Shown piece after piece: positions 3,629-33,747 of a DNA stretch of 64,000 nt. The stretch spans positions 1,997 through 65,996 of the forward strand of contig CALRGT010000004.1 in NCBI GenBank assembly GCA_943358095.1, in the 5' to 3' direction. Within the stretch, counting starts at the first letter, position 1, and each line of letters opens with the position of its first letter. A program made the translations under genes and the position numbers. Source of the stretch: an uncultured Candidatus Saccharimonas sp. (lineage in GTDB: Bacteria; Patescibacteriota; Saccharimonadia; Saccharimonadales; AQU-01). The notes under the pieces are model-generated. The model saw nothing but the letters and a program-made list of their open reading frames with translations, was not told where the DNA came from and searched no databases.

Positions 3629-4660
3629 TTATAACAGTTCGGACTGTTTACGCTTATCGGTTTTGCCGAGATGCTTATAAGCCTTGGACGTTACTTTGCG
3701 ACCACGGGGCGTACGCTCCAATAGTCCAATTTGTAACAGATACGGTTCGATAAAATCTTCAATTGTAGTTGCCTCATCACCAAGAATAGCAGCCAACGTA
3801 TTAAGTCCAACTGGCCCACCGTCATGCAAGTCTATGATTGTCGTTAGTAGCAATCTATCGGCTGGATCAAGACCAATGGCGTCAACTTCTAGTAATTTTA
3901 ACGCCTTTTCAGTTTGAGTCATATCGATAATACCGTCACCGTTAATATCGGCGTAGTCACGAACTCTCTTCAACAATCTGTTAGCTATACGAGGAGTTAA
4001 ACGAGCGCGAGTAGACAGAGTGTCGGCAGCCTGCTTATCGATTTTGGAACCCAGTATTGATGCTGAGCGAGTCACTATTTGTGCAATCTCACTTGGGTCA
4101 TAAAATTCTAGACGATGAATCATACCGAACCTATCTCGTAATGGCGCAGCTAGTGCTCCAGTCCTTGTCGTAGCTCCAATTAATGTAAACTTTGGCAAGT
4201 CCAGTCGTAGGCTTTTTGCGCTAGGCCCCTTGCCCAACATAATATCAATCGCGTAATCTTCCATAGCACTGTATAAAACTTCTTCTACGCTACGATTCAA
4301 TCTGTGAATTTCATCAATAAATAAAATGTCACCGTCTTGCAAGTTCGTAAGCAAGCTCGCTAAATCAGCCGCACGGTCTATCGCAGGCCCGCTAGTGATT
4401 CTTATCTGCGCACCCATCTCGTTAGCAATAACGCTCGCCATCGTTGTCTTGCCTAGTCCAGGAGGGCCGTAGAGCAAGACATGATCTATTGGCTCTTCGC
4501 GCTTCTTGGCTGCTGCAATAGCCAGCTTCAAGTTAGTTTTGATGCGCTCTTGACCTATCATATCGGCAAAAGTTTTTGGCCTTAACGTTACTTCAATTAA
4601 TGCGTCGTCGTCGTTGTCGTCAGCCGTAACTTGAGTATTAATAATTCGTTCAATCGCCAT
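3629..4660 (-). CDS. ruvB: Holliday junction branch migration helicase RuvB
   Basis: 343 aa with Walker [10 protein letters not shown] and Walker B FIDEIH. Typical RuvB length and position after ruvA. Confidence 0.95.
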
Positions 4661-4663
4661 AGT

Positions 4664-5239
4664 TTACCTTTTTAACGCCTGTTTAACGCGAGCCTCAGTG
4701 GACAGGCTTGAATCAACCTTACTTAGTGCCATGGCGGCGTCTTCACGGCTATATCCCAGGCCAACTAATGCTTGTAGCGCCTCATCTCCATCGCTAAATG
4801 ATGAGCTCTGCAAGAAAGCTGTTGCGTCATCGGCTGCATCGAGTCCAAGCTTGTTCTTAAGATCAACTACAACTCTTTCAGCAACTTTTTTACCAACACC
4901 ACTCGCGCTAGATATAAACTTAACATCTCCAGCCGCGATACTTGCTCTTACCTGGCCTTCGTTTGCAAGGTCGGTAATTGCTGCAGCAGCTTTGGGCCCA
5001 ACACCATTGACGCTTAATAGTTTTATGAATAGATCTTTGCGAGTTTTGGTTGAGAAGCCGTATAAGTCGTGCGCCTCTTCTTTAATATGCTCATAAATAT
5101 ATACTTTAATGTCCGTACCGAGGCGCATATGGGCCTGTTCGTCGCTAAGAGTATAGACGCCATAGCCTACTCCATTACAGTCAATAACGGTAACTCTACC
5201 ATCGTGTTCCAAAACTTTGCCACTTATTTGCGCTATCAT
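4664..5239 (-). CDS. ruvA: Holliday junction DNA-binding protein RuvA
   Basis: 191 aa with helix-hairpin-helix motifs (NGVGPKAA, SGVGKKVAERV). Immediately upstream of ruvB. Confidence 0.9.
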   Translation of the reverse strand: MIAQISGKVLEHDGRVTVIDCNGVGYGVYTLSDEQAHMRLGTDIKVYIYEHIKEEAHDLYGFSTKTRKDLFIKLLSVNGVGPKAAAAITDLANEGQVRASIAAGDVKFISSASGVGKKVAERVVVDLKNKLGLDAADDATAFLQSSSFSDGDEALQALVGLGYSREDAAMALSKVDSSLSTEARVKQALKR

Positions 5240-6456: not shown

Positions 6457-7923
6457 TTATATTTCTCCGCCTACGACTTGTTTTATATCTGTAATTATAC
6501 CACTGCTTGTCTTAATTTTATGCCATAATATTATAACTAACATAATCATTCCGCTGTACATCAACACCATTTGCCATACGGTTATTGACTGCTTCACTAA
6601 TGCTCTCGGCAATCTAGACAATAAAGACACCACATCTAACATATAGGTCAAAGATAGCCTCGACGGCATAGCCAGCCAGCCCGACATAAAAGGCACGAAC
6701 ATTCCAGCCAAACCAGCAACCAGACATAAGGACATCGCTATCGGAACTAGCGGTACCACCAACACATTGGCTAGCAATGCTACAGCCGAAAATTGTCCAA
6801 ATATATACATAATTATTGGCATAGTCATTATCTGAGCAGCAGAAGTCTCGATAATTAACGTCATTAATATTTTAGGTTGCCTACTTTTAAATACCCTTTT
6901 AGTTATTAGCGGTGCCAGAACTAATATTCCAAAAAAAGCTAGAAAAGATAAATACCAACCGATGTCCGACCATAGATATATTGGATAAACTCCGGCCGTG
7001 ATTACTGCAGCCAATAATATCAAAACTATAGGGCGAAATGTTCTGCCGTAATACCAAGCCCACAAACTAAGAGTACTTACAATTGCCGCTCGGACTATAG
7101 AAGCGCTGAAGCCTGTGAATAGCAAGAAAATTCCTATCAAAAGTAACGATGCGACTGTACTCTGATATTTTGAACGCTTTCTGAGCAACTTCCTGACGGC
7201 TCGCATTATTATTGTTAGATTATATCCAGACACTGCGACTACGTGAGTCAAGCCAACTGCCGCTAACTGCAGGCTAACAGATTTTGGTATCGTGCTGCGC
7301 TGACCGATCAACAATCCAAGACCAAAAGATGCAGCCGGCTCAGGCAATGCCGACTGCATTCCAGCCTCAAAACGGCGACGAATTACTTCAATTAAAGAGT
7401 CAGATTTTTCGATAACTTTTATGCTCGCAAATGATAGACTAGCCTGACGTGGTCCACGAGTTGGATATAATTTTGCACTAACCTGCACAATATCGCCCTT
7501 ATAAACCATTGGCTCGCCAAAACCCTTAACACCTATCTTGCCAACCAAGTCTATGCGATAAGGTTCAATAACTTTAATTTGACCTAAATCAAAACTAATT
7601 TGAGATTTATCTCCGTAGACTGCATCGCTATCAGCTACACCCACAACAACTACATTATTTTTATATAAATTATTGTAATTATCTAGCAGCGACATATATG
7701 CACTGCCTCGCCACCAACCGATAGACAACCCAAGTAAAATTAAAGGAACAGCAAACATAACTCTTGCTCTGCGCAGGGTTATTGTTATCAATAATAAGCT
7801 AACCGCTAGCCACCAATGTTGAAATTCAATTTTAGTTCGAGCCAGTCCTAGTCCGACCAATACTGCCGTCAAAAATACGGCTATTAAAGTCGTTCGCCGA
7901 AACTTATATTTATAACTAGTCAC
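6457..7923 (-). CDS. comEC: ComEC/Rec2 family DNA-uptake channel (no beta-lactamase-like C-terminal domain)
   Basis: 488 aa, polytopic, with an N-terminal OB-like region followed by the competence membrane domain. Confidence 0.75.
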   Translation of the reverse strand: MTSYKYKFRRTTLIAVFLTAVLVGLGLARTKIEFQHWWLAVSLLLITITLRRARVMFAVPLILLGLSIGWWRGSAYMSLLDNYNNLYKNNVVVVGVADSDAVYGDKSQISFDLGQIKVIEPYRIDLVGKIGVKGFGEPMVYKGDIVQVSAKLYPTRGPRQASLSFASIKVIEKSDSLIEVIRRRFEAGMQSALPEPAASFGLGLLIGQRSTIPKSVSLQLAAVGLTHVVAVSGYNLTIIMRAVRKLLRKRSKYQSTVASLLLIGIFLLFTGFSASIVRAAIVSTLSLWAWYYGRTFRPIVLILLAAVITAGVYPIYLWSDIGWYLSFLAFFGILVLAPLITKRVFKSRQPKILMTLIIETSAAQIMTMPIIMYIFGQFSAVALLANVLVVPLVPIAMSLCLVAGLAGMFVPFMSGWLAMPSRLSLTYMLDVVSLLSRLPRALVKQSITVWQMVLMYSGMIMLVIILWHKIKTSSGIITDIKQVVGGEI

Positions 7924-8112
7924 ATATCAAAGATAGTTGACGTTAAATCAGATTAAAATTACTAATGCTTCCGATGCTATGCTAATTCAGCTTATTGTCA
8001 TTTATTAGCACGGTATTTTGTGAAAATCCTAATATGTAGCAGCAGATATATACTCCCCGCCCTGAACGCCGGTTAACTCAGTGGTTCGTTGAGTTCAAGT
8101 CAGTGGAACAAT

Positions 8113-8147
8113 TCCAAGAAAAAAGACCTACCTTTGGCAGATCTTTT
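8113..8147 (-). terminator. intrinsic terminator after the tRNA-Lys-derived element
   Basis: Minus strand AAAAGATCTGCC-AAA-GGTAGGTCTTTT forms a 12-bp stem with 2 G-U pairs, running into TTTTTTCTT. Confidence 0.55.
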
Positions 8148-8151
8148 ATCT

Positions 8152-8227
8152 TGGAGGGCCCAGTGAGACAGCGTCCGGCTGCGCGCGGGCTAACTCACGA
8201 TGCCGTAAGTTCAAATCTATGGGCTCC
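8152..8227 (-). pseudogene. 76-nt tRNA-Lys-derived tRNA-like element (D/anticodon arms replaced, T-loop expanded)
   Basis: Compared with tRNA-Lys at 9263-9339, the last 18 nt are identical, the T-stem 5' strand TCGTGAGTT is identical, and the 5' acceptor strand plus U8A9 matches 10 of 11. The middle is 16 unrelated nt, and a 23-nt GC-rich insert sits in the T-loop. Confidence 0.65.
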
Positions 8228-8265
8228 AAATTTAGAACCCCTCTTTCGAGGGGTTCTAAATTTGG
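8226..8265 (-). terminator. 18-bp perfect hairpin downstream of the 8321-8824 gene
   Basis: CCAAATTTAGAACCCCTC-TTTC-GAGGGGTTCTAAATTTGG. It abuts a 9-nt copy of the tRNA-Lys 3' end at 8263-8271. Confidence 0.6.
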
Positions 8266-8320
8266 AGGGCCATTGTGTACGCTATTACAACTATTTTGAA
8301 AATCTGCAAGCATACTGAGA

Positions 8321-8824
8321 CTACGCTTTTATCTTGGATGTCGTGTTTTTAGGTTCGTGCGCTTTGACAAAACGATGATAGCCCAAGTACAGCACTGTAA
8401 CTAAGCCAACAGTGACCACAATAAATACGTACTTACTATTCTCCGACGCGAAACCGCGACCTAGGCTATATAACAAGACGAATAAACCACCTAACATAAC
8501 TCCGTCTGCCATTACTTTGATTTTATTCTCATATACCAAACTTACCGCAAGAAGAACAACTGCAGCGATTAAAGCTATTATTGATACATTGCGGTTATAG
8601 GGACGCATATCTTTATTATGCTGTTCCATTTTGATATCAAAGGCCCTTTGTGTGGCGAGTTCATCGGTTGTTGGTTCTTTGCTGAGCGTATTAAGTACTA
8701 CCGGAAACTCAGGCGCCTTGGGTCCTGGATAAAATGTATTTATACCTACACCAATGAAGATTGCTATTAGCAGGCCCAGAAAGAAAGTGTAGACTAGCTT
8801 AAGAATTTTATTGTCTTCTTTCAT
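8321..8824 (-). CDS. hypothetical membrane protein (about 4 TM)
   Basis: 167-aa ORF with hydrophobic helices at the N-terminus and in the C-terminal half. No motif. Confidence 0.55.
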   Translation of the reverse strand: MKEDNKILKLVYTFFLGLLIAIFIGVGINTFYPGPKAPEFPVVLNTLSKEPTTDELATQRAFDIKMEQHNKDMRPYNRNVSIIALIAAVVLLAVSLVYENKIKVMADGVMLGGLFVLLYSLGRGFASENSKYVFIVVTVGLVTVLYLGYHRFVKAHEPKNTTSKIKA

Positions 8825-8871
8825 AAAACCTCCTGGTTACGTTACTTATATTATACTCCTTTCATGCCATC

Positions 8872-8906
8872 ACTATATAAATAAATGCCCCTAAATAGGG
8901 GCATTT
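8872..8906 (-). terminator. intrinsic terminator after the DUF1059-like gene
   Basis: AAATGCCCCT-ATTT-AGGGGCATTT on the minus strand, followed by TTATTTAT. Confidence 0.55.
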
Positions 8907-8958
8907 AGAATAAGCGGTATTGGAGGGACGTATGTATCGCTGTTGCAACTATTATTCG

Positions 8959-9189
8959 TTACGCGTCTTCTAGCGAGTCAAAACTATTTTCAAATTTTTT
9001 GTACCAGGCTTGCTGATTTTCAGGACTCCAAGCCATCATCTCTTCCATTGCTTTTTTATGTGCTTCATCGCCGGCTTGAACCTTTTGCATTACGTGATTT
9101 CTGCTATTTTCACCCATTTCTGCAGATGTTTCACCGGTTATTACTTCGTCGCAAGCCCCAGCAAGATTGTTACACGTTGATTTCTTCAT
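8959..9189 (-). CDS. small DUF1059-like protein
   Basis: 76 aa. The N-terminus MKKSTCNNLAGACDEVITGETSAEM fits the C-x(6-7)-CD...GET pattern I associate with DUF1059. The opposite-strand ORF 8943-9191 is judged a shadow. Confidence 0.5.
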   Translation of the reverse strand: MKKSTCNNLAGACDEVITGETSAEMGENSRNHVMQKVQAGDEAHKKAMEEMMAWSPENQQAWYKKFENSFDSLEDA

Positions 9190-9218
9190 AATTAATCTCC
9201 TTCAAAAACATTATACAT

Positions 9219-9245
9219 CAAAAAACAGAGGCAAATTACCTCTGT
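9219..9245 (-). terminator. intrinsic terminator after tRNA-Lys
   Basis: Minus strand ACAGAGG-TAATTTG-CCTCTGT followed by TTTTTTGAT. Confidence 0.65.
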
Positions 9246-9262
9246 TTTAAGCATAAGCTGTA

Positions 9263-9339
9263 TGGAGGGCCCAGTGAGACTTGAACTCACGACACCCTGC
9301 TTAAAAGGCAGGTGCTCTAACCAGCTGAGCTATGGGCCC
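9263..9339 (-). tRNA. tRNA-Lys (anticodon UUU), CCA encoded
   Basis: Manual cloverleaf: acceptor GGGCCCA/TGGGCCC, D arm GCTC-AGCTGGTTA-GAGC, anticodon arm CCTGC-CTTTTAA-GCAGG, T arm GTGAG-TTCAAGT-CTCAC. Confidence 0.9.
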
Positions 9340-9574
9340 CTATTACGGGGTGGTTGATTGTTAAAATTGAGTTCGTCTATTAGACGAATCTTACTCAGCT
9401 GATTAGAGCACCAAGGTGCACATAATTATTTTTGTCCTTAGCCGTGAACGGCTTGGACGCCAGCTGAGCTATGGGCCCCTATATTGGGCAATAGTTATTG
9501 TTACAATTACAATAATATCAATTTAACACCTTATATTATCTCGATTTATAGCAAAAAGTCAATGTTTTAACAGA

Positions 9575-12844: not shown

Positions 12845-12849
12845 TTCTT

Positions 12850-13482
12850 TTAAAAGCCCAGCTTAGGACCATAAAAATACCAGAATTCACGCAATATTAA
12901 TACCAATAAAATAACATAAATAGTTACCAGTACTTCTCCGTGATTAAACCTAAGCCATTTAGCGTATTTCTTTTTAATTTTTATTGTTTTATTTTCGATC
13001 AAAAAAAGCACCGTATACCAAGAACTTAGAATCAACACAATCCATACCGTCAAGCAGTAGATACAAATCGCCTTTATTACAAACAGGCTTTGCTCCATCA
13101 AGAACAACATAAACAGCAGACTGCCAACCATCTGAAGTGAATATAATTGCCAGAACCACTTCTTCATCTTGGCACCAGCCAGCATAACAACACCCAAGAA
13201 GATCATTGCGGTAAAACTAGCCAGCCCCATCAACGGATTAGGGAAACCTAGGACCGTAGCAGTTTTGGACTGCATAACAGAGCCACAACTAAGAACTGGA
13301 TTTAGATCACAAATAAAACTAATGCTAGGATCTTTTATTAGTGCAATATGATCCTGGACCAATATAAACGATGCCACGAATCCGACAATTCCGCAAAATA
13401 TCAAAATCACTGGTAAGGTTTGGCTGAGCTTATAACCAAAAACTTTATTGGTTATACTCTGTATTCTCTTGTTTTTTTTCAT
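12850..13482 (-). CDS. vitamin K epoxide reductase (VKOR) family membrane protein
   Basis: 210 aa with loop cysteines C-x7-C (CDLNPVLSC) followed by GSVMQS, a CIYC redox motif in a TM helix, and 4-5 TM helices. Confidence 0.75.
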   Translation of the reverse strand: MKKNKRIQSITNKVFGYKLSQTLPVILIFCGIVGFVASFILVQDHIALIKDPSISFICDLNPVLSCGSVMQSKTATVLGFPNPLMGLASFTAMIFLGVVMLAGAKMKKWFWQLYSLQMVGSLLFMLFLMEQSLFVIKAICIYCLTVWIVLILSSWYTVLFLIENKTIKIKKKYAKWLRFNHGEVLVTIYVILLVLILREFWYFYGPKLGF

Positions 13483-13550
13483 ATCTATAACCAGTATAAC
13501 TCCTTTGTACTGAGCTTACTATGACATCACCAACTTAAGCGTGAATCGTC

Positions 13551-15467
13551 TTACTTTTTGTCGTCGACAACTTCGCCCTCTACAGGCTCTTCTTTGTCAT
13601 CTTTGTCATCTTTCTTATCTTCTGCGTTTTCGTCATTCGCTTCTTCGTCTTTTGCAGCAGCTTCATACATCTTTGCTCCAATTGGCATCGTAGTATCTAC
13701 TAAAGTTTTAGCGGCAGCTTCAAGAGCCTCTTTGTCCGCTTTTTCGTCAGCAATAACTTTTTTGGCTTCTTCAATTGCGTCCGTAAGGGTCTTCAAATCA
13801 TCTTCAGCTAATTTGTCCTTATTATCGTCTTTCATCTTTTCGGCTTGATATATAGCGCTGTCGAGATGATTCTTGGCTTCAATAGATTCACGCAATTTTT
13901 TGTCTTCTTCTGCATGAGCTTCGGCGTCTTTAGCCATTTTTTCTACTTCATCTTTACTTAGTCCAGAACTACCCTGAATAGTAATACTCTGTTCTTTGCC
14001 AGTGCCTTTATCTTTAGCAGTAACATTTAAGATACCGTTAGCGTCTAGGTTAAAGGTGACTTCTACTTGAGGAACTCCACGTGGAGCAGACGGAATACCG
14101 TCCAGAACAAATCGTCCTAGACTCTTATTGTCAGTCACTAATTCACGCTCACCCTGAACGACATGAATTTCAACTGAACTCTGATTGTCTGCTGCAGTCG
14201 AGAAAACCTCGCTTTTGCTAGTAGGAATAGTGCTATTGCGTTCTATCAATTTAGTAGCGACGCCACCAAGAGTTTCGATTCCTAGTGATAGCGGAGTAAC
14301 ATCAAGCAACAGAACATCCTTAACATCTCCCTGTAATACACCGCCTTGGATTGCAGCACCTACGGCTACAACTTCGTCTGGGTTTACGCCCTTCATCGGC
14401 TCTTTACCAAAGATTTTCTTAACTTGCTCGGCAACAGCTGGCATACGAGTCATACCACCTACAAGTACGATAGCATCTATGTCGCTAGCCTTAAGACCGG
14501 CATCTTTTAGCGCTTTTTCGCAAGGGATACTGGTTTTTTCGATTAGATCAGAGACTAAACTTTCTAGCTTAGCTCGGGTCAATTTATGCTCAAAATGCTT
14601 AGGACCTTCAGCATCAGCAGTCAAGAAAGGAAGATTAATATTTACCTCTTGAGCACTTGATAGTTCGATCTTGGCTTTTTCGGCCTCGTCACGCAATCTT
14701 TGCATGGCGGCTTTGTCGTTAGAAATATCTATTCCAGCTTCTTTTTTGAATTCATCGACAAAATAATTTACAAGCACGCGGTCAAAATCGGCACCACCAA
14801 GGTGGGTGTCGCCATTTGTGCTCTTAACTTCAAAAACTCCGTCGCCCAACTCTAGGATAGAAACGTCGAATGTTCCACCACCAAGGTCAAATACGGCAAT
14901 CTTCTCATCGCCCTTCTTTTCCTTATCAAGACCATAAGCCAATGCGGCTGCAGTTGGTTCGTTGATAATTCTCTTTACTTCTAATCCAGCAATCTTACCA
15001 GCATCTTTTGTAGCTTGGCGTTGTGAATCGTCAAAGTAGGCTGGAACCGTAATGACAGCTTCTGTTACAGGTGCACCCAAAAAAGCTTCAGCATCAGCCT
15101 TAAGCTTGCCCAAGATCATGGCACTTACTTCTTCGGCGCTATATTCTTTGTCACCCATTTTAACTTTAGCGCTATTGCCGCTCTTAACGATTTCGTAGCC
15201 CATAAGTTTAAGATCTTTTTGAACTTCTTTGTCGTTAAAGTTACGACCAATAAGTCGTTTTACTTCATAAATTGTGTCTTTGCTGTTAGTAACTTGCTGG
15301 CGTCGTGCTACCTGACCAACCAAGCGTTCACCCTTTTTGTTGATAGCAACTACGCTCGGAGTAGTGCGCGCACCCTCAGAGTTAGCAATAATTTCTGCTT
15401 TGCCTGACTGCATTACAGCCATAGCACTGTTGGTAGTACCGAGATCGATACCGATGATTTTACCCAT
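13551..15467 (-). CDS. dnaK: molecular chaperone DnaK (Hsp70)
   Basis: Hsp70 signatures [17 protein letters not shown] and [10 protein letters not shown]. Start moved from 15494 to ATG 15467, which is preceded by AGGAG. Confidence 0.95.
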
Positions 15468-30222: not shown

Positions 30223-30290
30223 TGGTAGCGGGGCCAGGGCAAGCGCACTTCAGTCCAGACATTACATCCCCTGCCCTCTAAAGGCAAGAT
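30223..30290 (-). repeat. tRNA-fMet 3'-end-derived element (distal copy), directly after the SDR stop codon
   Basis: Plus strand TGGTAGCGGGGCCAGGGCAAGCGCAC is identical for 26 nt to the copies at 31985 and 33503. The first 16 nt equal the 3' end of the tRNA at 33673-33747. Confidence 0.75.
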
Positions 30291-31019
30291 CTACTTGCCT
30301 TTAATAGAATAGCCGCCGTCAGCCAAAAAATCTGACCCAGTTATATAGCTAGCTTCATCAGAAGCAAGGAACATTACAAGTGGAGCAATCTCTTCGGGTT
30401 TAGATATTCGACCGAGTATTGTCCCGTCACTTATTCTCTTGAAGGTCTCCTCGTTCCAATCGTTAACTTGGTCAGTCTCTACGTAACCTGGTGAAACCGT
30501 ATTAAATCGTATGTCGGGGTAGGTTTTAGCAAGTGCTTTTGTTATTGATATAATGCCTGCTTTTGTGGCAGCAAAAGTCAGAGTACTAGTGGTCGCAAGA
30601 TTTGGCTGTCCTTTGATAGAGCTGATGTTGATGATACTTCCGGACTTGTTCGATTGCATTGACGGCACTACGGCCTGGATGCAGTGCAATGTGCCCAACA
30701 CGTTCGTTTTATATTCTTCAATTGCCTTATCATCGTCCATTTCAGTGACATCTTTTAGGAAGTTGCGAGCAACTCCTGCGTTGTTGACTAGTACATCAAT
30801 GCCACCCAACTCCTTTATAGCACTCAGAGTGGCGTTTTTGTCGGAAACGTCAAATACGGCTTTGACTGAGCCATCAAGACTCTTTTGAACTTTCTTTAAC
30901 TCCTCGCTATCCGTACGGCCATGGACTATTACTGTATAACCTTGTCTATGGGCTAATTCAGCGATAGCTTTCCCTATGCCTCTACTTGAACCAGTAATTA
31001 AGATTGTTTTCATAGTCAT
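30291..31019 (-). CDS. short-chain dehydrogenase/reductase family protein with Tyr-to-Phe change in the catalytic motif
   Basis: 242 aa with TGSSRGIG, NNAG and NISS motifs. The expected YxxxK reads FAATK. Confidence 0.8.
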   Translation of the reverse strand: MTMKTILITGSSRGIGKAIAELAHRQGYTVIVHGRTDSEELKKVQKSLDGSVKAVFDVSDKNATLSAIKELGGIDVLVNNAGVARNFLKDVTEMDDDKAIEEYKTNVLGTLHCIQAVVPSMQSNKSGSIINISSIKGQPNLATTSTLTFAATKAGIISITKALAKTYPDIRFNTVSPGYVETDQVNDWNEETFKRISDGTILGRISKPEEIAPLVMFLASDEASYITGSDFLADGGYSIKGK

Positions 31020-31031
31020 ATCATATCAGAC

Positions 31032-31062
31032 AAAATAAAATGACCCCAGTAATGAGGCCATT
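31032..31062 (-). terminator. intrinsic terminator after tRNA-like element E1
   Basis: Minus strand AATGGCCTC-ATTACT-GGGGTCATT forms a 9-bp stem with 2 G-U pairs, followed by TTTATTTT. Confidence 0.55.
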
Positions 31063-31073
31063 GTGCTTATGCT

Positions 31074-31133
31074 TGGTAGCCCAAGTGCATTCGAATTGGA
31101 ACGTACTCCTTGAAGAGTTGGCTAGATGGAATA
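31074..31133 (-). repeat. tRNA-like element E1 (GGGCTACCA family), directly after the HAD stop codon
   Basis: Minus strand ...ACTC-TTCAAG-GAGT-ACGTTCCAATTCGAATGCACTTGGGCTACCA. A near-identical 29-nt core is found at 31622-31650. Confidence 0.7.
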
Positions 31134-31517
31134 CTATAAATTTACAGCTAGAAAGTCTTCGAGAGCTTTTAGGTCTTTTTTCACTGGGTCGTAATACATT
31201 GTATTGATACCAGCTGTCTCAGCGCTCTTAACGGCCTCTGGGTTATGCTCAAAGAAGACTACTTCGTCTGGCTTCAATCCATAGCGTTTTAACATAATTT
31301 CAAAATACTTAGGGTCTGTCTTTTCTGGGTCATGCTTTAGAGTAAATACTTCGTACGGCACATCATCCAACTTAAACTCTTTGAATTGCTCGTCATTAGC
31401 ACCAGTCAGGACGATTTTCTTATTAGGAAAAGTCTCTAAGAGTGCGTGCATTTCTTTGAAGATAGTTCCATCTTTAAACACCAAGCCGTCTATTGCGTCC
31501 ACAAGTATTGTTTTCAT
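31134..31517 (-). CDS. HAD-superfamily hydrolase-like protein
   Basis: Start trimmed to ATG 31517 (MKTILVDAIDGLV, a DxD-like motif I). A later FFEHNPEAVKSAETAGI resembles motif IV. 127 aa. Confidence 0.55.
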   Translation of the reverse strand: MKTILVDAIDGLVFKDGTIFKEMHALLETFPNKKIVLTGANDEQFKEFKLDDVPYEVFTLKHDPEKTDPKYFEIMLKRYGLKPDEVVFFEHNPEAVKSAETAGINTMYYDPVKKDLKALEDFLAVNL

Positions 31518-31556
31518 ATCTCCATCATACCAAACCCCAAGCAAGACTCGAACCAT
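31518..31556 (-). promoter_or_regulatory. conserved upstream block with extended -10 (TGGTATGAT) and T-loop-like GGTTCGAGTC
   Basis: Minus strand GGTTCGAGTCTTGCTTGGGGTTTGGTATGATGGAGAT-ATG. A homologous block lies at 32970-33010. Confidence 0.4.
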
Positions 31557-31580
31557 TTAACAGCTAAGAATTATTGGTAA

Positions 31581-31610
31581 CAAAAAACCTCTGCTACGAA
31601 TAACAGAGGT
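31581..31610 (-). terminator. intrinsic terminator after tRNA-like element E2
   Basis: Minus strand ACCTCTG-TTATTCGTAG-CAGAGGT followed by TTTTTTG. Confidence 0.7.
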
Positions 31611-31621
31611 CAAAGTGCTTA

Positions 31622-31713
31622 TGGTAGCCCAAATACATTCGAATTGGAACCTTATCCTTGAGGAGATAAGTTGGTGGACACAGCTTAACAGGGAGGCGAC
31701 GTGTTAATTGAGA
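31622..31713 (-). repeat. tRNA-like element E2 (GGGCTACCA family), directly after the stop of the 64-aa ORF
   Basis: Minus strand ...CTTATC-TCCTCAAG-GATAAG-GTTCCAATTCGAATGTATTTGGGCTACCA. The stem differs from E1 by changes on both strands that keep pairing. Confidence 0.7.
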
Positions 31714-31908
31714 CTACTTTTTAGGAGAGAAGTAGTCAATAGCACCTGAGACCATACAAACGACTCCAACGAAGCCTATAAAAACGGTCCCCCAGTTTAC
31801 ATGCCCAGCTTTGTTCAGACTATCTGTGCTATTGATTAATGCTAGGCCAATTAGTATCTGTACAATTGCCAATCTTGAGTTAGTAGTTTTTGCCATACTA
31901 TTATTCAA
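31714..31908 (-). CDS. small two-TM membrane protein
   Basis: 64-aa ORF with two hydrophobic helices. No motif. Confidence 0.5.
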   Translation of the reverse strand: MNNSMAKTTNSRLAIVQILIGLALINSTDSLNKAGHVNWGTVFIGFVGVVCMVSGAIDYFSPKK

Positions 31909-31946
31909 TCCTTATTTATTCACTCAATTATGCTCGACTTTATGAT

Positions 31947-31974
31947 AAAATAAAAGACCTCGTTTCCAGAGGTC
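31947..31974 (-). terminator. intrinsic terminator after the tandem tRNA-half block
   Basis: Minus strand GACCTC-TGGAAAC-GAGGTC followed by TTTTATTTT. Confidence 0.7.
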
Positions 31975-31984
31975 AAAATGCTCA

Positions 31985-32378
31985 TGGTAGCGGGGCCAGG
32001 GCAAGCGCACATTAATTTGTGCGCCGAGAGGCTTCGGGCAACAGACTAATGACCGAACCATGGGACTTCCGCCATTACTGACTAGGGGCCAGGAATACTG
32101 GGGTATAATCCGCCCGTTTGTCGCTAAAGCGACGGGGGATTAGCGAACCATGGGACTTGCTGGTTCAAATACTGCGGGGCCTGGAATATTCCCTCGCTCC
32201 GGCCCGCCAAATCATTTGGGAGTGGCGGGTCGGGCTCAGGATATAATTTTGTCATAACAAAATTATCGAACCTTTTTGGCTCGAGCCCTGAGCCTCGGCC
32301 AAGAAAAAAGCTCCATCTTACTATGGGACTATTTTCTTGGGAGCAGGGTTAGTTTGCTCTACCGATAGGGACTAGAAC
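31985..32378 (-). repeat. ORF-free GC-rich block of three tandem degenerate tRNA-fMet 3'-half modules
   Basis: Pseudo 3' ends lie at 31985-32000 (exact), 32078-32092 (TGACTAGGGGCCAGG) and 32170-32184 (TACTGCGGGGCCTGG). T-arm-like CGAACCATGGGACTT occurs at 32054 and 32144. Several 7-9-bp hairpins lie in between. Confidence 0.7.
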
Positions 32379-32969
32379 CTAGTTTGCCTTTCTGTACATG
32401 TAGTAATAAGTCGTCACTATCACATTAAAAGTAAGACCTTTCATGCAGCTCACAATAAGTGGTGTAGAGCCAATCATGGCTGCGTATGTAAGGGTGCAAA
32501 GTAGAGCGCCGTAGACGAAATATAAGCTTTTTTCTGAAATGCCACTTGTTCTTTTGGAAGTCACAACATGATAAACCCATGGCGCGGCCGCTATGGTATT
32601 GAATATTACCGCAAACCATCCAGCACTTGCGGGGTAAGCACCAATTAACCAAGCGGCCAGTGGGGCAACCAGAGCTACGCTGAGAATTGCTTTTTGACGT
32701 TTTGACTTGTTGGTAACTAGGTAGCCGATTGTCAAACTTGTGATAATAAACATTGCAAAATTAGTCACTAACGGTACCCATAAATTCTCAGAAGCAAAGT
32801 AAACCATCCACCCGATGTTCCCTGCTGCGTAAAGGGTAAGTGTCGGGGCATAAAGACCTTTAGGGTTGCGAGTATGAACCAGCTTAGCAAGTTGCGAGTA
32901 GTTAGAGAGCAACCAAAAAGCCTCAGCTGAGATAATCAATAAATTTTCAATAATTGTTTGTGTAAGCAC
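32379..32969 (-). CDS. polytopic membrane protein, possibly PQ-loop/SWEET-like transporter
   Basis: 196 aa with a GTG start and 6-7 TM helices. Two internally similar halves each carry a basic loop after the first helix (SQLAKLVHTRNPKG and HVVTSKRTSG). Weak pattern call. Confidence 0.4.
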   Translation of the reverse strand: MLTQTIIENLLIISAEAFWLLSNYSQLAKLVHTRNPKGLYAPTLTLYAAGNIGWMVYFASENLWVPLVTNFAMFIITSLTIGYLVTNKSKRQKAILSVALVAPLAAWLIGAYPASAGWFAVIFNTIAAAPWVYHVVTSKRTSGISEKSLYFVYGALLCTLTYAAMIGSTPLIVSCMKGLTFNVIVTTYYYMYRKAN

Positions 32970-33010
32970 TTATGCATATCATACCAAACAACCAGACAGG
33001 ACTCGAAACT
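32970..33010 (-). promoter_or_regulatory. conserved upstream block with extended -10 (TGGTATGAT) and T-loop-like TTCGAGTC
   Basis: Minus strand TTTCGAGTCCTGTCTGGTTGTTTGGTATGATATGCATAA-GTG. Homologous to 31518-31556. Confidence 0.4.
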
Positions 33011-33081
33011 GAAATACAGATTTAATAATATCGCACAACCAAAGCGACTGGTCTTGAAGCCAATCTCTATCTTTAAAGTCT

Positions 33082-33113
33082 TGGTAGCCTTGGTTTGTTA
33101 TAACTGGAACTTA
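33082..33113 (-). repeat. degenerate tRNA-like element E3 directly after the stop of the 99-aa ORF
   Basis: Minus strand TAAGTTCCAGTTATAACAAACCAAGGCTACCA shares GTTCCA...GGCTACCA with E1 and E2. Confidence 0.4.
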
Positions 33114-33413
33114 CTAATAGCAGAAGTGTGAATCGAAGTCTTTCTTCCATTTAGCAATATCACTCGTTGAAGCACCTGATGACTCTACCTGCTTCATGAG
33201 CTTTTCATGACCCGGGCCAGAACAAAATTGCCTGTCAGTATAGGACATAATGAAACTCAAGGCAGTATTATTATACCGATTGGTGCCTGCATTATTAAAA
33301 ACCACCCAAAATACAGTAACAGCTATAAGTATCGACATGTTAACTGCTAACGATATAATCATGACTATTTTTATAACTTTGGTGTCATCCTTAGTTTCTG
33401 ATTGTTTTTTCAT
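33114..33413 (-). CDS. small membrane-anchored protein
   Basis: 99 aa with one TM helix and two Cys in the C-terminal part. No motif. Confidence 0.5.
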   Translation of the reverse strand: MKKQSETKDDTKVIKIVMIISLAVNMSILIAVTVFWVVFNNAGTNRYNNTALSFIMSYTDRQFCSGPGHEKLMKQVESSGASTSDIAKWKKDFDSHFCY

Positions 33414-33502
33414 TTATTCCTTTGATTATTTAACTTAAGCATAATACATACGCAAATAATATTACAGAACCCCGATTTCTGCAAAGTCATGATGCTTATG
33501 TT

Positions 33503-33640
33503 TGGTAGCGGGGCCAGGGCAAGCGCACATTAATCCAGGCGCCCGCTACGCTGGGGCCTGTGACTAATGACCGAACCATGGGACTTGCACCAGCTAAAGC
33601 TGTTGCGTCCCAGAACCGAGTCCTAAACCAGGACCAAAGA
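33503..33640 (-). repeat. tRNA-fMet 3'-half-derived element adjacent to the intact tRNA
   Basis: 33503-33534 is identical for 32 nt to 31985-32016. The 25-nt block GACTAATGACCGAACCATGGGACTT at 33562-33586 equals 32044-32068. Confidence 0.75.
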
Positions 33641-33666
33641 AAATGACCCATCTTGCGATGAGTCAT
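33633..33666 (-). terminator. intrinsic terminator after tRNA-fMet
   Basis: Minus strand AATGACTCATC-GCAA-GATGGGTCATT (one mismatch) followed by TTTCTTT. Confidence 0.65.
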
Positions 33667-33672
33667 TTACTT

Positions 33673-33747
33673 TGGTAGCGGGGCCAGGACTCGAACCTGG
33701 GACCTCGTGGTTATGAGCCACGCGAGCTGCCGCTGCTCCACCCCGCG
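33673..33747 (-). tRNA. initiator-like tRNA-Met (CAU), CCA encoded
   Basis: CGCGGGG-TG-GAGC-AGCGGCA-GCTC-G-CGTGG-CTCATAA-CCACG-AGGTC-CCAGG-TTCGAGT-CCTGG-CCCCGCT-ACCA. Position 1:72 is an unpaired C/U. The 5' half is close to the E. coli tRNA-fMet sequence as I recall it. Confidence 0.9.

Follow-up and report, generated by a model that had tools for sequence, protein, structure and literature searches.

The locus considered here raises the question of why copies of the 3' end of a tRNA gene should punctuate a row of small genes, and by what process such a row could have been assembled. The window (the whole 64-kb stretch of DNA analyzed, from contig CALRGT010000004.1 of an uncultured Candidatus Saccharimonas sp.) contains a tRNA-Lys(UUU) gene that is followed, on its 3' side, by further copies of its own last nucleotides. 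An earlier reading made from the letters of the DNA (hereafter the sequence-only reading) had read these copies as scars left by DNA that integrated site-specifically at the 3' end of the tRNA, a proposal now supported by strain variation and by core-exact junctions. The segments between the copies appear here as units of a cassette array, which was rather probably built by site-specific recombination at a 7-nucleotide (nt) core by an enzyme acting in trans.

The tRNA-Lys array and its units

Three units of 342, 658, and 111 nt lie downstream of tRNA-Lys(UUU), every one of them starting directly 3' of the sequence CCCTCCA (the core) and terminating in a further CCCTCCA. Read along the minus strand, the order is tRNA, cassette 1, cassette 2, the 111-nt non-coding unit, a terminator, a decayed small element, and ComEC. 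The features of the array, all on the minus strand, are the following:

9263-9339: tRNA-Lys(UUU) with encoded CCA (ARAGORN; Rfam tRNA, 72.3 bits)
9263-9269: core CCCTCCA, the last 7 nt of tRNA-Lys(UUU) and the cassette joining point
8921-9262: cassette 1, 342 nt, with left module, 76-aa gene, and type-A end motif
9222-9248: hairpin of the cassette 1 left module, which also holds a -10-like TATAAT
8959-9189: 76-aa gene (p76) of cassette 1, an open reading frame (ORF)
8921-8955: type-A end motif of cassette 1, ending in GTCCCTCCA (nhmmer E=5e-6)
8263-8920: cassette 2, 658 nt, with left module, 167-aa gene, and type-B end motif
8882-8907: terminator-like hairpin of the cassette 2 left module (the terminator scan agrees), which also holds a -10-like TATAAT
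8321-8824: 167-aa membrane-protein gene (mem167) of cassette 2 (ORF)
8263-8297: type-B end motif of cassette 2, ending in GGCCCTCCA (nhmmer profile)
8152-8262: non-coding small element, 111 nt, with a long hairpin (8224-8267) and a tRNA-like part (8152-8228)
8113-8155: distal terminator hairpin closing the array; in the related locus L002 the last core is followed by this same sequence
8046-8106: an older, decayed small element without the tRNA 3' copy at its end; it stands in the same place in the related loci L001 and L002

The 3' ends of the three units read AGTTGCAACAGCGATACATACGT-CCCTCCA for cassette 1, AGTTGTAATAGCGTACACAATGG-CCCTCCA for cassette 2, and CTCACTGGG-CCCTCCA for the 111-nt unit. 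At the other end, inspection of the sequence indicates that in cassettes a hairpin or terminator comes first and TATAAT-like elements come next.

The 18-mer TGGAGGGCCCAGTGAGAC has exactly two copies in the window, at 9263 within the tRNA and at 8152, which confirms the duplication noticed in the sequence-only reading, and two or more matches to it were obtained in none of 100 shuffles. The shorter copies that had also been reported, of the 9-mer TGGAGGGCC, were found as described, exact at 8263 and with one mismatch (8 of 9) at 8921. At up to one mismatch this 9-mer gives 12 matches in the whole window against 5.4 expected, with four matches co-oriented inside 1.1 kb, and both short copies are parts of a longer 34-nt direct repeat (8262-8295 and 8920-8953, 71% identity). 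When their frequency was tested against chance, the short copies proved to belong to a conserved end motif that recurs in other genomes, at ~260 borders of cassettes; this motif, together with the 18-mer shuffles, indicates that the duplicated tRNA-Lys 3' ends are not due to chance. Hairpins were likewise located at the positions claimed, but the stem at 8224-8267 is a perfect one of 20 bp and not of 18 bp; its far arm is the preceding core, so that the copy at 8263 forms one arm.

On the contrary, the DUF1059-like label given to the 76-aa protein had to be dropped, since Pfam returned no match at E<=0.1 and just 1 of 17 members of its family reached DUF1059 (PF06348), at E=0.027. A PDB profile search with the same protein gave nothing below E=0.4. 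Small plus-strand ORFs starting from the GGAGG-like complement of the core were considered as genes and rejected, their lengths (13, 25, and 6 aa) not being kept.

End motifs and spread of the arrays

The end motif of the cassettes comprises 30 nt (30-37 nt) and represents, in diverged form, the last ~26 nt of a tRNA-Lys gene, from T loop to CCA. It aligns with that segment of the tRNA with a 4-5-nt insertion (AGTT-CAA-GTCT-AC-GG-CCCTCCA), and what is repeated at the cassette borders is, therefore, a diverged tRNA 3' end far longer than 9 nt. A profile built from 23 sites was searched by nhmmer in two sets of loci (numbered L001 onwards where they must be told apart), namely 80 syntenic loci returned by a scan with the RimK of the window, nearly all titled Saccharibacteria or Saccharimonadales metagenome-assembled genomes (MAGs), and 83 metagenome loci fetched by an end-motif pattern. 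The syntenic loci contained 36 matches, two of them in the window, where they are the only ones in 64 kb and both lie in the tRNA-Lys array. The metagenome loci contained 223, with up to 11 per locus and a median spacing of 685 nt, bringing the total to ~260 end motifs in roughly 100 loci. None of the 83 metagenome loci carries end motifs on both strands, and in the syntenic loci all end motifs 3' of the tRNA share its orientation. Two subtypes are distinguished, of which type B ends like tRNA-Lys(CUU), a gene contained in 28 of the 83 metagenome loci.

The median length of 48 segments between consecutive cores is 612 bp, gene-bearing units being mostly of 0.3-1.2 kb and non-coding ones of 110-209 nt. 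These loci are co-oriented arrays of mostly single-ORF cassettes with a median spacing of 612-685 nt. The tiny segments and the missing recombinase that had been pointed out in the sequence-only reading as speaking against integration were both observed, but they are no anomaly of this locus, being typical across the system. Cargo is highly diverse, 302 ORFs falling into 238 clusters, and includes toxin-antitoxin pairs, Nudix proteins, kinases, HAD and SDR enzymes, and rhodopsins. The array-bearing loci come from lake, soil, and peat metagenomes. When viral contigs were scanned, the end-motif pattern gave no matches, and the sole match of the tRNA-Lys 3'-end pattern was a jumbo-phage tRNA cluster unrelated to the arrays; these scans, therefore, found no phage or attP donor.

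Type-1 rhodopsin genes (Bac_rhodopsin in Pfam) were observed in tRNA-Lys(CUU) arrays of three loci (L094, 5911-6639; L087, 4185-4913; L181, 7766-8494), surrounded by small cassettes of unrelated content. It may be as cassettes that rhodopsins spread in Saccharibacteria; the paper on Saccharibacteria rhodopsins makes no mention of a tRNA or mobile context. Further arrays with the same end motifs were seen ~9 kb beyond RimK in L026 (320-1690) and L030 (20-1352), the anchors falling beyond the retrieved DNA.

Variation between related genomes

The gene order is conserved, with DnaJ, Zn-protease, RimK, and a membrane protein before tRNA-Lys, and the variable DNA, ComEC, and YebC after it. In 62 syntenic loci, which share the order from RimK to YebC, the variable DNA (82-9089 bp) always adjoins the 3' end, irrespective of the orientation of the tRNA. 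The latter is inverted relative to RimK and ComEC in 21 of these 62 loci (L004, L009-L011, L014, L018, and others), which suggests inversions with breakpoints at or near tRNA-Lys, the variable DNA moving with its 3' end.

Comparison with close relatives indicates that the segments of the window, whose possible invariance had been named in the sequence-only reading as what would refute it, are not invariant. L001, with flanks of 92-96% nucleotide identity, passes from the tRNA straight to the terminator and the decayed element, and represents the empty site. L002, with flanks of 97-99% identity, carries a single Nudix cassette in place of the cassettes of the window; this cassette ends in the 29-mer TTGCAACAGCGATACATACGTCCCTCCAA, the same as that of cassette 1 in the window, and is followed by the same distal terminator. 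Homologues of p76 or mem167 were found in none of the 80 syntenic loci.

Reuse of cassettes and core-exact junctions

The same complete units recur in different arrays, and homologues of both p76 and mem167 stand in other arrays, at tRNA-Lys(UUU) or tRNA-Lys(CUU). One cassette, 97% identical in both occurrences, starts at nt 1 after the tRNA in L055 and 5.1 kb into the array in L051, in the latter right behind an internal end motif, and the two left contexts have only CCTCCA in common. Similarly, the tRNA-adjacent small element of L047 matches an element of L059 that starts exactly after the core. The p76 cassette of the window, with its left module, gene, and end motif, was found in at least four other array contexts, at least five in all: behind a 2-hydroxyacid dehydrogenase cassette in a tRNA-Lys(CUU) array (one such contig belonging to L002's own MAG), after a 107-aa gene, after a DUF1905 gene, and directly after another tRNA-Lys. 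Homology to p76 units begins within 3 nt of the core and ends at the next core. For the mem167 cassette, a homologue of 85% identity with the same left module and end motif stands first behind tRNA-Lys(CUU) in L181. In the array of L027 there are tRNA 3' copies of the kind that tRNA-Lys genes of other lineages typically have, which indicates imported DNA. At the L035/L036 junction no recognizable end motif was found, and hence no proximal insertion could be demonstrated there.

A folded, tRNA-like small element

The non-coding unit of 111 nt behaves as a separate cassette, and is a folded mimic of the tRNA 3' half with a second core. Its 77-nt tRNA-like part (8152-8228) begins with a mimic of the acceptor 5' strand (GGAGCCCATAG, against GGGCCCATAG in the tRNA), followed by the hairpin AACTTACG/CGTGAGTT, whose 3' arm is the 5' strand of the T-stem of the tRNA, and then by a GC-rich insert, the T-stem 3' strand, the acceptor 3' strand, and CCA. 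The last 18 nt are identical to tRNA-Lys, and the element as a whole (8152-8262) gives z=-8.5. ARAGORN called neither a tRNA nor a tmRNA at the 77-nt part, and Rfam searches in E-value mode, covering this region of the window and two related loci, returned true tRNAs and noise only, with neither type of element matched. Homologues were identified in L003, L093 (two copies), L105, and L179, with tRNA-derived parts that follow the resident tRNA; in the L093 homologue behind tRNA-Lys(CUU), the non-tRNA parts are kept while the tRNA parts and the pairing arm follow tRNA-Lys(CUU).

A larger subfamily of 110-190 nt consists of the tRNA 3' half, its T loop enlarged by an insert of 55-60 nt, and stands behind tRNA-Lys in several genomes, behind tRNA-Arg(UCG) in L093, and behind tRNA-Met in the window. 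A covariance model of the insert gathered eight members, the tRNA-Met elements of the window not being among them. In its three-helix fold, 91.5% of pair cells are standard, compared with 65% in shuffles and 32-50% with slid partners. Both sides change in 14 of 18 pairs, in an alignment that was fitted to the model and so favors covariation somewhat. Loops are of the CUUG/UUUA type, and one variant has mini-hairpins of the GCGAAGC type. Because of the strong covariation of its insert, the larger subfamily is taken to be a conserved folded nucleic acid (RNA or single-stranded DNA), the covariation coming from that subfamily and the window-type element having few homologues.

Also in L093 (3752-4300), tRNA-Arg(UCG) was observed to be followed by two to three repeats of a terminator, a small element, and a 16-nt tRNA 3' copy. 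The series is interrupted by a stretch of N, the repeats having apparently broken the assembly.

How the arrays may have been built

A cassette consists of a left module (hairpin or terminator plus -10-like element), usually one small gene, and the 30-nt end motif. Insertion would take place by recombination of the core at the cassette end with the identical core of either the tRNA 3' end or any resident cassette, and excision would presumably release circles. A crossover within the last 7 nt would never damage the tRNA, and each insertion would add one co-oriented core. The enzyme, of which no gene was detected in or near any array examined, would have to act in trans. We infer the recombination chemistry, the circular intermediates, and the enzyme from the anatomy of the cassettes, their presence and absence in strains, their reuse across arrays, and their core-exact junctions, which are observed directly.

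Several points weigh against this process. (i) Sequence to the right of the core was not conserved in the 41 distinct junctions inspected, and thus no symmetric core-type site is evident. (ii) Neither an excised circle nor an empty-site read was observed. (iii) No more than about a third of the tRNA-Lys(UUU) loci have recognizable cassettes, and some variable genes lack recognizable bounding end motifs, as in L035/L036 and in the distal 1.5-kb gene of L002. (iv) Recombinase searches were negative. Using phmmer with XerD and gamma-delta resolvase on six-frame ORFs of the window and the 80 loci (1.3 Mb) and of the 83 metagenome loci (0.44 Mb), nothing was obtained even at E<50, a result that is supporting evidence only, since the probes were approximate and were run with no positive control. 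Pfam scans of the 109 and 150 largest array ORFs showed no recombinase, primase, or helicase module among the 25 most frequent families of each scan (those with at least two members in the former and at least three in the latter), beyond which a single rare integrase could remain hidden. In the window, 50 ORFs reach 150 aa or more; 47 were scanned with Pfam, and none is a recombinase at E<=1e-5. Regarding linked genes, the neighbors of the arrays differ (ComEC at that of the window; FolD/Mur ligases or SHMT/MurB at those of tRNA-Lys(CUU)), and consequently no conserved linked gene stands out as candidate enzyme.

With no recombinase found, the question arises whether a dedicated one is needed at all. 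Imported DNA might instead be joined by RecA-type or microhomology-mediated recombination, with motifs, cores, and terminators serving as portable homologies. Saccharibacteria are naturally transformable. The window encodes RuvA, RuvB, and ComEC (the latter adjoining the tRNA-Lys(UUU) array only), adjacent modules are alike enough over 30-50 nt to recombine, and conserved flanks could allow exchange of whole arrays. We nevertheless regard this explanation as unlikely, since the left contexts of the L055/L051 cassette share only 6-7 nt, as also happens in the p76 and mem167 comparisons, and such a length is far too short for homologous recombination; strict co-orientation and core conservation are also better explained by a site-specific enzyme.

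Decay offers another route to the same picture, if integrase-carrying islands or prophages integrated serially at the tRNA and kept nothing but one gene of their cargo and the tRNA piece they had displaced. Islands are classically recognized by such a displaced 3' piece of the tRNA, in the same orientation as the gene (Islander, PMC4383910); for Prochlorococcus islands, integration in tandem and scattered partial tRNAs have been described (10.1101/2020.12.28.424599), and the variable genes lacking end motifs would fit as well. However, no integrase or integrase fragment was detected in ~160 arrays with the phmmer probes and Pfam families described above, and the units, which usually hold one gene and have a median of 612-685 nt, are uniform, conserve their left as well as their right ends, and recur complete in different arrays. 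Uniform units, absence of integrase remnants, and reuse of whole units are not expected from random decay, which makes this origin quite improbable.

The covariation of the three-helix insert in the related subfamily, together with its CUUG-type tetraloops and the transcribed positions of the elements between stop codon and terminator, would also suit functional RNA, the end motif and small element then being tRNA-like 3' UTR (untranslated region) or processing signals, or a small RNA, and no scars of mobility. This is highly improbable, considering that (i) end motifs are confined to arrays, (ii) the motif comes and goes with the gene between strains, (iii) no Rfam family matches, and (iv) core-exact junctions are left unexplained; moreover, a folded element and a recombination site are compatible, as in the attC of integrons. 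Finally, single-strand, hairpin-guided transposition without a transposase of their own, in the style of the palindrome-associated transposable elements (PATEs) of IS200/IS605, would account for insertion directly 3' of a short specific sequence (CCCTCCA), a hairpin adjoining the left junction, the absence of terminal inverted repeats, and units without enzyme, but it has hardly any likelihood given that no conserved right-end hairpin was seen in the 41 junctions, that the right end repeats the target plus ~20 further nt of tRNA-derived sequence, and that neither Y1 nor HUH enzymes are represented in the 25 Pfam families listed for each array scan.

Recombination at the core by an enzyme in trans is thus retained, and a wider proposal can tentatively be built on it, as possible though somewhat doubtful: an integron-like gene-capture system of Saccharibacteria, perhaps also of other bacteria of the Candidate Phyla Radiation (CPR), with docking at tRNA genes, tRNA-mimic sites, and an unlinked, possibly new recombinase. 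Docking sites would be the 3' ends of tRNA Lys-UUU, Lys-CUU, Arg-UCG, and Met, and the recombination sites of the cassettes would be mimics of the tRNA 3' half, ranging from the 30-nt motif to the three-helix element of 110-190 nt. The recombinase might act on folded single strands entering by natural transformation, and single genes (rhodopsins, toxin-antitoxin pairs, Nudix) would be shuttled among genomes otherwise poor in mobile elements.

Relation to known systems

In several aspects the arrays resemble integrons and clusters of attC sites lacking integrases (CALINs). Cassettes are co-oriented, mostly single-gene and of ~0.3-1.2 kb, carry diverse cargo mostly of unknown function, and end in a motif like a recombination site. 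Arrays differ in close strains, and in the small element, which is the longer form of the site, structure is better conserved than sequence. In contrast to integrons, no intI or other tyrosine recombinase was detected in the window or in ~160 array loci (phmmer probes and Pfam families as above), a tRNA 3' end takes the place of attI as anchor, and the site is tRNA-derived, with CCCTCCA as core where integrons have GTTRRRY, and without an R''/L''-L'/R' palindrome. None of the 41 junctions inspected contains a GTTRRRY/RYYYAAC pair, the boundary falling after CCA and not at G/TT. Cassettes bring, as far as sequence can tell, their own hairpin or terminator and -10-like element instead of depending on the integron promoter Pc. 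A long-range inverted repeat across the junction, similar to that of attC, was rejected as a general feature, having been seen in L070 only.

With tRNA islands of the Islander type the arrays share an intact tRNA whose displaced, co-oriented 3' fragment marks the far end, as found here, and tRNAs for Lys, Arg, and Met are typical island targets. Repeated insertion at one tRNA pushes older elements outward, as in tRNA islands and the tycheposons of Prochlorococcus, for whose islands tandem integration and accretion at tRNA genes have been reported (10.1101/2020.12.28.424599). Unlike tRNA islands, the units are 10-100 times smaller, have an identity block of 7-18 nt only, lack integrase, excisionase, and replication genes (among the families listed), and possess uniform cassette-like ends; unlike tycheposons, they carry one small gene each, with no recombinase or replication module among the 25 families listed per scan.

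Small modules without recombinase, bounded by sites, arranged in tandem, and served by an enzyme encoded elsewhere are also found in cis-mobilizable elements (CIMEs), integrative mobile elements exploiting Xer (IMEXs) at dif, pdif modules of Acinetobacter plasmids, and hitchers (PMC11389934). The target of the arrays is the tRNA 3' end, not dif, pdif, or the att site of an integrative and conjugative element, and their sites are in direct, not alternating, orientation. Recombinase-less elements mobilized in trans (CIMEs, IMEXs, pdif) are the nearest functional analogy.

Overall, the arrays appear to be a new variant of known gene-capture systems, joining tRNA-targeted integration to cassette arrays of the integron style, both of them known ideas. 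The genomes of CPR bacteria are tiny, with few recognizable mobile elements. Literature searches brought up no earlier account of arrays of this kind from Saccharibacteria or CPR. If the proposal is true, the arrays would be a main route of accessory gene acquisition in CPR bacteria; they sit at several tRNA genes, differ between strains of 97-99% identity, and carry ecologically relevant cargo. They would need an enzyme that nobody has linked to them, which makes for a concrete search for a new recombinase. They also suggest a natural docking site for genetic tools in Saccharibacteria, and the structured mimic of the tRNA 3' half is a new conserved nucleic-acid element.

A second array, a leader unit, and other features of the window

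Further features of the window comprise a second array of the same kind, at tRNA-Met, a unit upstream of tRNA-Lys, and neighboring genes:

30223-33747, minus strand: second array, with 16-nt tRNA 3' copies
33673-33747, minus strand: tRNA-Met(CAU), head of the second array
33503-33518, 31985-32000, and 30223-30238, minus strand: 16-nt tRNA-Met 3' copies, CCTGGCCCCGCTACCA
9344-9482, minus strand: 5' leader unit of tRNA-Lys (repeat and hairpin scans)
6457-7923: ComEC
3629-5239: RuvA and RuvB

The 16-mer CCTGGCCCCGCTACCA has four exact copies in the window against 0.04 expected. These delimit a structured small element of 170 nt and two gene-bearing segments, the first with genes of 99 and 196 aa, then one with a 64-aa gene, a 140-aa gene, and an SDR gene.

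On the other side of tRNA-Lys, the leader unit contains at 9460-9482, 139 nt upstream, a 23-nt exact copy of the first 19 nt of the tRNA plus 4 leader nt, together with an inverted copy of the D-arm (9394-9412) and a hairpin (9372-9388). Upstream of the unit, at 9533-9562, there is a promoter-like site. L001 has no copy of the unit, the window one, and L002 two (at 5960-6240 of L002). Leader units of 115-140 nt recur at tRNA-Lys(UUU) in L066 and L068, and were also observed at tRNA-Lys(CUU) in L092, L093 (4300-4440), and L096. In general, they carry an exact copy of the first 18-19 nt of the tRNA and an inverted D-arm copy.

Among the loci compared, L003 (JAYVTZ010000002.1) is titled as a Burkholderiaceae MAG; it is syntenic with the Saccharibacteria loci and its RimK is 96% identical to that of the window, so this title probably reflects a binning or labeling error. 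A VKOR-family gene (12850-13482) lies in a segment of ~700 bp (12846-13555) that is absent from L001 and present in the window and L002; this strain-level indel sits between DnaJ and DnaK, and not at a tRNA.

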